Part shown: piece by piece, positions 20,951-23,922 of the stretch | How the letters are laid out: every line of letters starts with the position of its first letter | Numbering within the stretch: position 1 is the first letter of the stretch | Source: Deltaproteobacteria bacterium | Lineage (GTDB): Bacteria; Desulfobacterota; GWC2-55-46 | Direction: 5' to 3' | DNA length: 64,000 nt | Assembly: GCA_016212705.1 (NCBI GenBank) | Contig: JACREU010000091.1 | Location: 217-64,216, forward strand | The notes under the pieces: generated by a model | The model's input: only the letters and a program-made list of their open reading frames with translations | The model's database searches: none | Told to the model about the DNA's origin: nothing | Position numbers and translations under genes: made by a program

Positions 20951-21336
20951 GTATGGACCTCCGGGGGTTAGTGATTGGCTATTATAATATAACGGAAATA
21001 AATAATAAATCTAAAATCTTATCCTGGCGGGCGAATAAACCGGCCCAGTGCCACATTCTATATTTTCAGTTTAAAATGACGGTTATGCGATTATTAAAAA
21101 ATTTTAACCTTCCGGGCAAGAAAACATTGACAAGACCATAAGAGAAAACAAAAAGGGGGAGACGCGGGCCGTTCGCGCCTGTTTCCGCGCGTTTTGTCGC
21201 CCCTGTCCGAATATGGAGGAGTATACATCAGGGTATGCTGTGTCGAGGTGATGATTCGCGAGGTATCCCCCCCCCCCTGGGTGGCGCCGTGGGCTTATGC
21301 AGGCACATCATCATAAGGGAGTGGCGCCGGATGGAG

Positions 21337-21373
21337 GCAAAAAAAAAGAAGGGCCGGTTTCCCGGCCCTTCTT
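21337..21373 (-). terminator. Rho-independent terminator of the tetraheme cytochrome gene
   Basis: 12-bp GC-rich stem AAGAAGGGCCGG/CCGGCCCTTCTT with a 4-nt loop. It is followed on the minus strand by a T9 run, about 30 nt after the stop codon. Confidence 0.85.
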
Positions 21374-21404
21374 TGCACCTTGCAGTCTCGCGACCGCAGA
21401 GTGA

Positions 21405-22295
21405 TTACTTCTGGTGGCAGGTTCTGCAGAGACCAGAACCGGTGTTGCCGCCGACCCTTCTAAGGAACAGGCCGTTGGACTCAGCTTCCTGGTCCGCGGT
21501 CACGTTCGAGTAGGTGGAGTCGATTTCCTGCCAAGACTTGTTGTTGAAGTGCGGATCGTGGCAGCTGGAGCACTCAACCTTGGAGGACCTGAGGAGGTCG
21601 GCGATCGTCGCCGAGTTGGAGACGAAGCCCTTTACCGCCCAGAGGTTCTTGGTGAGGTTGCCGTTGTCGTAGGTCGCGGCAGAGGTGTTGAGCTCAGAGG
21701 TAAGGTCGATACCGCTGATGGTTACGTTGGTGGCCCTCAGACCAGCGGCCGTCCCGGCGGCATAGGTCACGGAAACCGGGTGGTCGTTGGAGAGGTTAAG
21801 GCCGATGTTCAACCTGCTGGAGGTCATGAAGTCGGAGACGACTGACCCGAAGTCATAGAAGGTGTAGCCACGGTCCGAACCGCCGTTGACGACGCCGGAC
21901 TTACCAGGGGCGTTGACAATGTTGTCGAAGGTGGTTACGCCGTCATGGCATGAAAGACAGGCAAGCGAAGTCGAGCCGATGTCGGTGTTGAGGATCGAGG
22001 TACCCGCGATCGTCGAGCCATAGGCCGTGAAGGATGTCGGAGCGGAGGTGCCCCTGTTCCACATCGGCTTAAGGTTGTTGGCGGTGTTGGTGTGGTGAGG
22101 CGTGTGACAGAATACGCAGACTTCGGTCGTGCCCTGGGCGCCGATGTGCATCGAGAAGCCGCCGAGGTTGTGCCTGGAAGACGCGATGCCTGACGCGGCG
22201 TCGCCGTTGGCGTAGGTGTCAACTGCTGAAGCTGTACCGGCGGTGATGAAACCGATTGAGGCGACCGCTACTGCGATTGCGAGAAACCTTTTCAT
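21405..22295 (-). CDS. secreted tetraheme c-type cytochrome (doubled-CXXCH family)
   Basis: Sec signal (TASA/VD). Four CxxCH motifs: CVFCHTPHH, CLSCH, CSSCHDPH, CRTCH. SRHNL precedes heme 1 as in paired-CXXCH proteins. Gly/Ser/Thr/Asn-rich. Good RBS (AAAGGAG). Confidence 0.85.
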   Translation of the reverse strand: MKRFLAIAVAVASIGFITAGTASAVDTYANGDAASGIASSRHNLGGFSMHIGAQGTTEVCVFCHTPHHTNTANNLKPMWNRGTSAPTSFTAYGSTIAGTSILNTDIGSTSLACLSCHDGVTTFDNIVNAPGKSGVVNGGSDRGYTFYDFGSVVSDFMTSSRLNIGLNLSNDHPVSVTYAAGTAAGLRATNVTISGIDLTSELNTSAATYDNGNLTKNLWAVKGFVSNSATIADLLRSSKVECSSCHDPHFNNKSWQEIDSTYSNVTADQEAESNGLFLRRVGGNTGSGLCRTCHQK

Positions 22296-22371
22296 ATGAG
22301 ACTCCTTTCAATCTTTAAAGTTGTTTTTTTAGATACCTTGTTTCGTTTCGTCTCTGGCATTTTTTTTGGGT

Positions 22372-22422
22372 AAAAAAAATGCCTTCAGTTACCACCACCA
22401 GTCATCGGTAGTACCAAGGCAT
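22372..22422 (-). terminator. leader (attenuator-type) terminator inside the 5' UTR of the tetraheme cytochrome gene
   Basis: RNA AUGCCUU-GG-UACUACC ... GGUGGUA-ACUG-AAGGCAU forms two 7-bp helices, directly followed by U8. It lies about 75 nt upstream of the start codon. Confidence 0.45.
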
Positions 22423-22485
22423 CCATCGCCTGGAGGTCTGTCAGGGCCCGCCGTGAACCTTGTCAGCCTTCATTAAGTTACCACC

Positions 22486-22513
22486 ATTATACTCTTAAGT
22501 TAAAAACTGTCAA
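22486..22513 (-). promoter_or_regulatory. consensus sigma70 promoter of the tetraheme cytochrome gene
   Basis: Minus strand reads TTGACA-N16-TATAAT (plus strand tgtcaa at 22508-22513, attata at 22486-22491). This implies a leader of about 185 nt. Confidence 0.7.
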
Positions 22514-22677
22514 TAGGAAAATTAACAGGTTTTTAATAATTTTTTATGGAAGGGCTAATATTGTGTAAGTTGTTGTTTTTATTAAGTAAATATCTTTTTT
22601 GTTGTGCCATTTTGCCTTTTGGCCGGCCTTTTGAGGCCCTCTTCGCGTGTAAAAAGCCTTTTGTAAAAGTGCCTTCT

Positions 22678-22713
22678 CCCCTCCTTACCAAGGAGGGGCA
22701 AGGGGAGGTCGTC
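22678..22713. repeat. GC-rich hairpin repeat (CCCCTCCTT-ACC-AAGGAGGGG + CAAGGGGAGGTCGTC tail), family copy 1
   Basis: 9-bp perfect stem. Related copies lie at 30455, 34979 and 58140. Further small palindromes follow (22732-22754, 22764-22780, 22784-22806). Confidence 0.7.
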
Positions 22714-22824
22714 TTGAAATCACCCCACCCGGCCTCCCATTGTAGAGGGGAGGCGATTTACTCCTGCGCGCAAGCGCGCAACAAGGCCTTCAATTAAAAG
22801 GCCTTGCTTTTTGAAGGGCGGTCC

Positions 22825-22860
22825 AAAAAAAAAGCCCGGCGGGCTTGTGCCTGCCGGGCT
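22825..22860 (-). terminator. Rho-independent terminator of the NHL-repeat gene
   Basis: Stem GCCCGGCGGGC/GCCTGCCGGGC (one mismatch), loop TTGT, followed on the minus strand by T9. Confidence 0.75.
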
Positions 22861-22881
22861 GGATAATGCCAGGTGAGCCGC

Positions 22882-23922
22882 TTACTTCTTAATAACAGGC
22901 ACGCTCGTCCTCACTTTTGCCTTGTCCCCGAGGTACTCGAACTTCTCGATCCGCCTGTTCCAGGAGTCTACTACATATATATAGTCGTCCTTATCGACCG
23001 TGAGGCCCGCGGGCAGTATCATCTGCCCCCTGTCGCTCCCGTAGGAGGCGAACGCGAGGAGTATCTGCCCCTCCTCGTTGAATATCTGGATATTATTGAA
23101 GGCCGCGTCCACGACGTATATATGCCCTTCGCTGTCGACCCCGATGCCCTTGGGTCTGGCGAACATCCCCGGGGCGTCCCCGAACTGGCCGAAGGCCCGT
23201 ATGAACTTGCCTTCGGTATCGAATATCTGGACCCTGCCGTTCATGGTGTCTACTACGTAGAGGTTGCCCTTTGTGTCAACGGCTATGTGGGACGGGAAGT
23301 TGAACTCGCCCTCCTCCTTGCCCCTCTTGCCGATAGTGCTTATGTGCTTCAATGTCTCGGTATCGAAGACCTTTATGTTATGCGTGTGCGTGTCCGCGAC
23401 GTATATCTTCTTGCGCTCGAAGTCGGAGGCGATCCCGCTCGGCTGCTTGAAGGGCTGGTCCGCGACGAGGTTGCCGACGACCTTGCCGGTCGGGTCGAGG
23501 ACCGTAACCGAGTCGGTCTGGGAGTCCGATACATATATCCTGCCGTTTACGTCCGTCGCAACGCCTATGGGCTTGTAAAAGAGCTTCGCGCCCATCGCCG
23601 CGAGGGACGTGCCGGTCATGTTTACGGTGTCGAATATAAAGACGTCGGCGCTCGAGGTGTCGGTTACATAAATCTTGCCCTTTATGTCGGTATGGACGCC
23701 CATGGGCTTTCTAAGGGAGCCGCCGCCCTCGCCGCCGAGGAGGATGTCCATAGCCGCCGAGCCCTTCTTGAAGTCGGCTCCGCCGCGAAAGTCCCGGATA
23801 TATTTTATCCGGGGCTCGTCCGGGGGCTCGGGCCACAAGAGGTCCGGGAGCGGCGGCGCGGCGCAACCGTATATCAGGATGGGAAGGGCGATTGTGACGA
23901 GAACCTTGAATATCTTCTTCAT
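22882..23922 (-). CDS. NHL-repeat six-bladed beta-propeller lipoprotein
   Basis: Lipobox LIYGCA. Six or seven repeats of the G.IYV.D type roughly every 45 aa (IYVTD, IYVSD, IYVAD, LYVVD, IYVVD x2). Confidence 0.8.
   Translation of the reverse strand: MKKIFKVLVTIALPILIYGCAAPPLPDLLWPEPPDEPRIKYIRDFRGGADFKKGSAAMDILLGGEGGGSLRKPMGVHTDIKGKIYVTDTSSADVFIFDTVNMTGTSLAAMGAKLFYKPIGVATDVNGRIYVSDSQTDSVTVLDPTGKVVGNLVADQPFKQPSGIASDFERKKIYVADTHTHNIKVFDTETLKHISTIGKRGKEEGEFNFPSHIAVDTKGNLYVVDTMNGRVQIFDTEGKFIRAFGQFGDAPGMFARPKGIGVDSEGHIYVVDAAFNNIQIFNEEGQILLAFASYGSDRGQMILPAGLTVDKDDYIYVVDSWNRRIEKFEYLGDKAKVRTSVPVIKK

Follow-up and report, generated by a model that had tools for sequence, protein, structure and literature searches.

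ANTAR-domain proteins have as targets two tandem small hairpins, with hexaloops carrying an A at position 1 and a G at position 4; the second hairpin (P2) rises from the 5' base of a terminator, and the linker between the two is length-sensitive (PMC3369931, PMC8934654). In G. sulfurreducens, the nif, glnK and amtB terminators begin with the sequence CAGGCAANGGCGCC, the proposed and experimentally implicated recognition site of GnfR, a REC-ANTAR protein (PMC2995071). Another kind of terminator leader, the GEMM-I/GEMM-Ib element of cyclic di-GMP (c-di-GMP) or 3'3'-cyclic GMP-AMP (3'3'-cGAMP) (RF01051), is found before extracellular multihaem cytochromes, such as OmcS of Geobacter, and before signalling genes. 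Here, we looked at a leader in a 64,000-nucleotide (nt) stretch of DNA from a Deltaproteobacteria bacterium (GCA_016212705.1, contig JACREU010000091.1, positions 217 to 64,216), called the window below. This leader precedes the gene of an OmcE-like tetrahaem cytochrome, and the coordinates of all its elements are those of the minus strand of the window.

The leader has the same layout as the ANTAR-controlled leaders of EutV (eutP, E. faecalis), NasR (nasF), AmiR (amiE) and GnfR (nif, glnK and amtB): two hairpins and a terminator, with P2 starting from the terminator base. All are alike in the conserved A and G of the loops, in the conserved closing pairs and in a short linker. However, instead of hexaloops with an A at position 1, the loops here are mostly of 7 nt in P2 and of 5-9 nt in P1, with the A at position 2. 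The first hairpin (P1), a mini-hairpin in the described systems, has 8-12 base pairs (bp) here, and an additional conserved element, the clamp, follows the terminator. The regulon also differs, being made of extracellular cytochromes and a diguanylate cyclase rather than of nitrogen or ethanolamine metabolism, and the linked, putatively binding regulators are receiver-less proteins whose only domain is ANTAR. GEMM-I/Ib leaders are similar in the genes they precede, in their terminator as expression platform and in being found in a deltaproteobacterium of the metal-reducing type, but the leader described here does not match them in sequence or structure and has no GNRA tetraloop/receptor two-hairpin aptamer. 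An earlier reading of this DNA, made without database searches (the sequence-only reading), had drawn an analogy with the riboswitches of Geobacter cytochrome genes; it turned out to be loose, OmcE of G. sulfurreducens having no GEMM association (PMC1950547). The window protein is homologous to that OmcE (GSU0618, PDB 7TFS; 296 aa in the window versus 232 aa), has four CXXCH motifs and is a putative filament former. In the literature searched, omcE was not described as having an attenuator leader.

A conserved leader RNA family before OmcE-like cytochrome genes

The leader starts from a sigma-70 promoter at 22486-22513 (-35 TTGACA at 22513-22508, spacer of 16 nt, -10 TATAAT at 22491-22486) that agrees with the consensus at 12 of 12 positions, as had been proposed, and that is the sole 12/12 promoter within 21000-23200. 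Judging from the promoter position, transcription is predicted to start at about 22479 (+/-2). Counted from there, a leader of about 185 nt ends at the ribosome-binding site AGGAG (22306-22302) and the start codon ATG (22295-22293), a segment spanning 22293-22306. The gene behind it (21405-22295, minus strand) encodes a secreted, tetrahaem (four CXXCH) protein of 296 aa. Its best solved relative is the G. sulfurreducens OmcE filament (PDB 7TFS, E 1.4e-15), and it also matches PDB 9YUQ (E 1.9e-12).

We looked at loci containing relatives of the cytochrome, drawn from metagenome-assembled genomes of uncultured groundwater "Deltaproteobacteria"/Thermodesulfobacteriota. A near-identical leader was present in GWB2_55_19, and a common architecture was recognized in 21 of the 22 upstream regions inspected, which included orthologues as well as distant paralogues. 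The shared order runs from a consensus promoter through a hairpin whose apical loop is fixed and a joint resembling GGCGAUGRAUGCC to a variable strong hairpin, closed by AUGCC/GGCAU, and U7-9. The exception, locus L011, lies 3' of another cytochrome gene. About five OmcE-like genes stand in a tandem array there (G001:C53:25399-30431; L011, L100), with the leader at the first gene only; L011 is a downstream copy directly behind its neighbour.

A covariance model (R1) was built from the 21 upstream regions. In the 1.98-Mb assembly to which the window belongs, R1 found four copies: that of the window, two before OmcE-like paralogues of 325 and 329 aa (contigs C85 and C11), and a weaker one before a GGDEF protein (contig C54). 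All three OmcE-like genes of this genome are preceded by the leader. In the same taxonomic order, about 135 copies were found in 51 of 81 genomes, with 1-7 copies per genome. These 51 genomes are identical to the 51 that have an OmcE-like gene (E<=1e-20), and the remaining 30 have neither. Outside the order, R1 gave no match in a 401-genome sample of the phylum, under strict filters that weak matches may escape.

The family was then compared with known RNAs. Rfam 15 gave no family at the gathering threshold in the window, and the region 22200-22900 gave only noise at E<=10, e.g. 5.8S rRNA at 17.6 bits for a threshold of 42. GEMM-I (RF01051, gathering threshold 35 bits) was found neither in the window, nor at E<=10 in 22200-22900, nor genome-wide at E<=0.01. 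The suspicion of the sequence-only reading that this leader is a cis-regulator other than GEMM was thus borne out. Searchable literature on OmcE riboswitches or antitermination, and on ANTAR control of cytochromes, yielded no earlier description of such a leader, and as far as it shows, control of this kind has most likely not been described before for OmcE-type cytochromes. Altogether, these results indicate that the leader is a genuine, conserved cis-regulatory RNA family, unmatched by Rfam 15.

Anatomy and covariation of the leader

The whole leader folds at -51.7 kcal/mol (z = -3.1 relative to shuffled sequences, 0/200 of which were as stable). P1 is a long imperfect hairpin at 22431-22472 (-14.1 kcal/mol), whose apical loop is UCACGGCGG (22456-22448). 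With a linker of 0 nt, it is followed by the conserved joint, GGCGAUGGAUGCC (22430-22418), which can form P2, the candidate antiterminator hairpin GGC-GAUGGAU-GCC (22418-22430), GGC at 22430-28 pairing with GCC at 22420-18. The GCC of this 3' arm is also the 5' base of the terminator, i.e. the first three nucleotides of its 5' arm. The terminator hairpin itself occupies 22380-22422 (5' arm 22422-22407, 3' arm 22396-22380), with about 14-17 bp including bulges and -20.4 kcal/mol. It consists of the helices AUGCCUU (22422-16)/AAGGCAU (22385-79) and UACUACC (22413-07)/GGUGGUA (22396-90), and is followed by a U8 tract at 22372-22379. A stable hairpin and a U-tract longer than the usual minimum of 6 make it a predicted intrinsic terminator. 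The long structured leader with an internal terminator to be read through for cytochrome expression, as first proposed, is therefore supported; both helices and the U-run of the proposed terminator are present, the terminator recurs and covaries in relatives, and only its layout had to be corrected, to AAGGCA followed by U8 (22379-22372) instead of AAGGCAU followed by U8. P2 reaches only -3 to -4 kcal/mol in the window against about -20 for the terminator, and so could not compete with it unaided.

Four nucleotides after the U-tract lies the clamp, A8UGCC (22356-22367), whose 12 nt are 100% complementary to GGCAU8 (22383-22372; -12.4 kcal/mol). This is the perfect 12-bp hairpin at 22356-22383 that had been noticed before, and counterparts of it recur and covary in relatives.

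Pairing was assessed in an alignment (A2) of 103 distinct copies. Since A2 was guided by and fitted to the model, the pairing and covariation figures lean towards the model, with a margin that is nevertheless large. Of the cells in the inner stem of P1 and at the base of the terminator, 85% were paired, against 30-45% when the 3' partners were slid, and 249 double-sided changes were counted against 90 in shuffles (0/500 reached as many). All six inner pairs of P1 showed double-sided changes, with 79.5% of cells paired against the same 30-45%; in terminator helix 2, 89.5% were paired and five of the eight pairs showed such changes. MAFFT with RNAalifold alone recovered the stem tops only. The upper terminator stem was too variable to be aligned and was treated as an insert in the model. 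Conservation and covariation in related genomes, chosen beforehand as a test of the leader, thus gave a strongly positive result. Across the family, P1 typically has 8-12 bp and a mean of -14 kcal/mol, and the terminators have a mean of -20 kcal/mol and U6-9, alignment columns 178-183 being T in 94-101 of the 103 copies. In 54 of 103, the terminator has the motif UG-A-YGGCA, whose bulged A lies four pairs up from the base.

The P1 loop and the joint are near-invariant. The P1 loop has the consensus U-C-A-H-G-R-N-G-G(-G), closed by a Y-G pair, with U in 102 of 103 copies, C in 99, A in 98, and both G and the GG in all 103. For the joint, the consensus is GGY-N-A-Y-G-(R)-R-U-GCC; G54, C66 and C67 are found in 103/103 copies and G55, A58, G60 and G65 in 102. 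In all 103 aligned copies, P2 and the terminator are mutually exclusive through the shared GCC. A fourth P2 pair (columns 57-64) gave no signal, being pairable in 82% of copies when about 79% is expected from composition. A UCA:UGR kissing contact between the loops, or one between the GG of the P1 loop and the terminator CC, is possible on paper, with all partners invariant.

A clamp is present in many copies, and its pairs differ between members (GGCAU8/A8UGCC, GAGGU7/A7CCUC, UGACGGCC/GGCCGUCA, UUUGAAGGUAUUUU/AAAAUACCUUCAAA), the complement being the terminator 3' arm, with or without the U-tract. Perfect complementarity of at least 8 nt is present in 31 of 101 members, and the mean longest match is 6.8 nt versus 4.6 in shuffled sequences. 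The clamp cannot be an antiterminator, because termination has already been decided when the polymerase reaches it, and it can form solely in read-through transcripts. Quite tentatively, we suggest that in the read-through mRNA it captures the 3' arm and U-tract, which are then free, and so might fix the RNA in its ON fold or shield the 5' region.

Next, we looked at the genes behind the leader. OmcE-like cytochromes with 4-5 CXXCH motifs follow 85 of the 98 distinct copies with a readable open reading frame. When lower-scoring copies are included, 17 precede diguanylate cyclases of the PocR-GAF-GGDEF type (about 530 aa, one orthologous group), while a REC-GGDEF protein, a PEP-CTERM protein and an unassigned secreted protein were each found behind one copy. 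The leader is always co-oriented with the gene and often lies 7-30 nt from the start codon. In five loci (L013, L012, L017, L019 and L005), only 21-32 nt separate the U-tract from the ATG. A second promoter would not fit into this interval, and expression there should therefore occur by read-through only. The promoters match the consensus at 12/12 positions in 53 of 102 family members and at 10/12 or better in 82 of 102, with the -10 end mostly 2-7 nt 5' of the start of the RNA model. Promoters this close to perfect indicate that control is exerted after initiation, at the terminator.

The copy before the cyclase in the window's own genome (C54:4111-4198, L029 1501-1588) has 16 orthologous loci (e.g. 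L084, L128, L136). In this group, P2 comes near the canonical GGC-AAAGGU-GCC hexaloop; the own-genome copy has no obvious consensus promoter. Two complete leaders (P1-P2-terminator) in tandem before one cytochrome gene were observed at L015/L069 (G019:C3), L145 37-254, L146 2009-2218 and L108 1670-1881; such tandems would multiply the stringency of the switch.

Proposed ANTAR-type antitermination and its alternatives

We consider it reasonably probable that the leader works by protein-dependent antitermination of the ANTAR type, in a non-canonical form dedicated to nanowire-type cytochromes. Segment 22372-22479 would then be one copy of a lineage-wide, cis-acting transcription attenuator. The near-constitutive consensus promoter would fire and, by default, the nascent RNA would fold P1 and then the terminator of about -20 kcal/mol with its U8, so that transcription would stop about 105 nt downstream, before the OmcE-like gene. 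Expression would require P2 to capture the 5' base of the terminator with the help of a stabilising trans-acting factor. Because P1 and P2 are adjacent near-duplicates, this factor would most likely be a dimeric ANTAR-domain antiterminator, with P1 as the recruitment hairpin and P2 as the antitermination hairpin. The candidate in this genus would be a response regulator of the REC-ANTAR type whose gene is an orphan (own genome C6:15984-16589), whereas small stand-alone ANTAR proteins encoded beside the cytochrome genes could play this part in other genera. After read-through, A8UGCC would pair with the freed 3' arm and U-tract, and the PocR-GAF-GGDEF cyclase, placed under the same switch, would couple the output of nanowire cytochromes to c-di-GMP synthesis.

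The evidence for ANTAR control comes firstly from the RNA. P1 and P2 stand in tandem and overlap an intrinsic terminator, with a linker of 0-5 nt in 71 of about 100 copies folded one by one. They are near-duplicates, sharing a stem top GGY(U)...(G)GCC and a loop N-A-N-G-R-N(-N) of 6-7 nt, in which the second nucleotide is A and the fourth is G. At the place equivalent to the GnfR site CAGGCAANGGCGCC, the window has CAGGC-GAUGGAU-GCC; the GGC/GCC stem of P2 and the CA prefix are identical, and the GnfR site has AA at loop positions 1-2 where the family described here has A at position 2. Several members, e.g. the C54 copy with GGC-AAAGGU-GCC, have exact A1/G4 hexaloops.

The second line of evidence comes from gene linkage. 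In eight genomes (G010, G012, G015, G024, G030, G032, G034 and G035), belonging to genera g7, g9 and g12, small ANTAR-only genes lie within about 1 kb of OmcE-like genes, and the motif is present at the linked cytochrome gene in seven of them, G030 excepted. Every small ANTAR gene examined in its context adjoins an OmcE-like gene, in upstream-divergent, upstream-codirectional or downstream arrangement, and some cytochrome genes are flanked by two. These receiver-less genes are found at L145 437-733(-) and 1154-1462(+), L146 1249-1677(-) and 3414-3725(+), L147 1437-1736(-), L148 1429-1707(-), L149 1248-1622(+) and L124 1245-2102(+). Their products have 89-142 aa, with a coiled coil, an ANTAR domain confirmed by Pfam and often an N-terminal CxxC or CxxxC; such a Cys pair hints at redox or metal sensing. 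Likeness to the GnfR site and gene linkage are independent of each other, and together they raise the ANTAR reading. In the window's own genus, only two REC-ANTAR genes are present: the orphan on C6 and a copy at C115:11437-17045, which lies beside amtB-glnB-amtB and presumably encodes a GnfR/NasT-like nitrogen regulator. The sole ANTAR protein of genus g29, which bears the motif, is of the C6 type, and we regard the C6-type REC-ANTAR as a candidate partner. When the own genome was scanned with a loose pattern, a GnfR-like site with a U-tract behind it, no GnfR-type site emerged apart from the known copies and noise. Impairment of the ANTAR protein NasT by c-di-GMP has been reported in P. putida (PMC10783516), and a link between the switch and the co-regulated cyclase is plausible.

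Several observations weigh against ANTAR control. Most loops are not canonical hexaloops: about 36 of 103 copies have a P2 loop of 6 nt and the others one of 7-8 nt (7 nt in the window), while the P1 loop measures 9 nt, or 5-7 nt with U.G and C-G counted as closing pairs. Between the conserved A and G stands a single nucleotide instead of the canonical two. Counted from the nucleotide before the A, the G falls at position 4 (G27 in 103/103, G60 in 102/103), and in this register the invariant A is at position 2 (A25 in 98/103, A58 in 102/103), A at position 1 being found in only 18 of 103 P2 loops. P2 is pairable in 99.4% of cases yet invariant, so that it is supported by invariance without covariation. 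About 20 near-invariant nucleotides, including the GG of the P1 loop, go beyond the canonical A1/G4 signature and would suit a small aptamer as well. In this genus, no ANTAR gene was found near any copy of the leader. Since a REC-ANTAR of the C6 type is found in motif-less genomes too, it does not discriminate, and ANTAR domains (PF03861) are encoded in 81 of the 81 genomes of the order, so that a correlation between presence and absence is uninformative. Finally, the leaders beside the small ANTAR genes carry a somewhat different P2, with GYC in place of GGY. This variant joint, AAGYCC-AUGGAU-GCC, was seen at L146 2009-2109, L147 2105-2206 and L148 2135-2238, with lower R1 scores, and may reflect co-variation of the RNA with its dedicated protein.

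One alternative is a new small-molecule riboswitch, with a compact aptamer made up of the P1 loop, the joint GGYNAYG and the base of the terminator. P2 would then be stabilised without a protein, by a ligand such as a cyclic dinucleotide or a metabolite linked to redox state, haem or iron, and termination would be prevented. The clustering of the near-invariant nucleotides in loop and joint, the classic terminator as expression platform and the missing ANTAR linkage in this genus all agree with it. So does the regulon of extracellular cytochromes and GGDEF cyclases, which resembles that of GEMM-I/Ib in Geobacter (PMC1950547), in a genome without GEMM-I where this niche is free. Nevertheless, we hold a riboswitch to be rather unlikely: the two loops are near-duplicates, as expected of a site bound by a protein dimer, neither a multi-helix junction nor a covarying pseudoknot was seen, the possible UCA:UGR contact being invariant and of 3 bp only, and both the repeated genomic linkage to ANTAR genes and the likeness to the GnfR protein-binding site speak for a protein. 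A shade more doubtful still is the fuller proposal of a new riboswitch class, with a minimal two-loop aptamer on a terminator that would directly sense a second messenger or one of the metabolites just named and would switch on nanowire cytochromes and the cyclase in an uncultured, GEMM-less groundwater lineage, the ANTAR neighbours being unrelated or auxiliary.

The non-canonical loops, and the universal C6-type ANTAR shared with motif-less genomes, would also be compatible with a factor other than an ANTAR protein, i.e. another protein or a trans-acting RNA that stabilises P2 or melts the terminator. We find this quite improbable, as the loci show linkage to no further candidate, while the ANTAR linkage and the likeness to the GnfR site are specific. 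The very strong promoter followed by a strong terminator, and the tandem copies (L015/L069, L145, L146), recall a small RNA gene, whose abundant RNA of about 105 nt would act in trans while the cytochrome would depend on constitutive leak-through. This is very unlikely: the element always lies 5' of, and co-oriented with, the same two gene families, often at the short distances given above, it is absent wherever OmcE-like genes are absent, and the clamp, formed only after read-through, is conserved.

The attenuator proposed in the sequence-only reading, in which duplicated GGUGGUAAC..GAAGGC boxes, box 1 (22466-22485) and box 2 (22381-22399), compete for 22407-22422 without a factor or through a leader peptide, or alternatively serve as DNA operators, is hardly credible now, although the repeat (22384-22397 versus 22473-22486, 13/14 identical) and the complementarity to the terminator 5' arm are real in this genome. 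For box 1, GGTGGTAACTTAATGAAGGC in the window, orthologues of the same genus have GGTTTTAAC or GGTGTTAAC and the next one has AAAACTAAA, and beyond these the box is unrecognisable; in A2 columns 11-16, the only part of the 5' flank tabulated for the 103 copies, no residue exceeds about 50%. Box 1 abuts the -10 element, so that its first six bases precede the predicted start at about 22479 and are probably not transcribed, a caution that the sequence-only reading had itself given for part of the box; its GAAGGC is outer P1, AAGGCUG being paired within P1 in the minimum-free-energy fold. The conserved competitor of the terminator is P2, and stems that covary rather than keep their sequence point to selection on RNA and fit DNA operators poorly. 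Two further candidates were rejected. A leader-peptide attenuator has a 10-codon upstream open reading frame here (MKADKVHGGP) that is not conserved, an ATG 5' of the P1 loop being present in 28 of 103 copies with unrelated peptides; and the GGA of a CsrA-type site in the P2 loop is found in part of the family only.

The surrounding locus and significance of the proposed switch

The cytochrome gene ends at its own terminator (21374-21345), and its neighbours encode an NHL-repeat protein, a peptidyl-prolyl isomerase (PPIase) and c7-type cytochromes. On the other side, a spacer of 370 nt (22514-22881) separates the terminator of the NHL-repeat gene (22846-22832) from the promoter. It contains unrelated perfect palindromes, CCCCTCCTT/AAGGAGGGG at 22678-22698 and CAAGGCCTT/AAGGCCTTG at 22782-22806, and just 5' of the -35 box it is very A+T-rich, resembling an UP element.

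Only a small number of biological "wires" are known to serve extracellular electron transfer. OmcE-type cytochrome filaments are one of these, and their control outside Geobacter is essentially undescribed. Every sampled genome of the order with an OmcE-like gene has the leader and, because this leader stands behind a near-perfect promoter, the on/off decision should lie at the terminator. The leader is also a compact, portable promoter-attenuator cassette, and its covariance model can be used to find such genes in metagenomes. If ANTAR-type antitermination is indeed at work here, it would extend this mode of control to respiration and electroactivity and would define a non-canonical loop code (A2/G4, heptaloops). 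The receiver-less ANTAR subfamily, often with a Cys pair, would then provide candidate dedicated regulators, and nanowire output would be tied to c-di-GMP synthesis through a shared switch.

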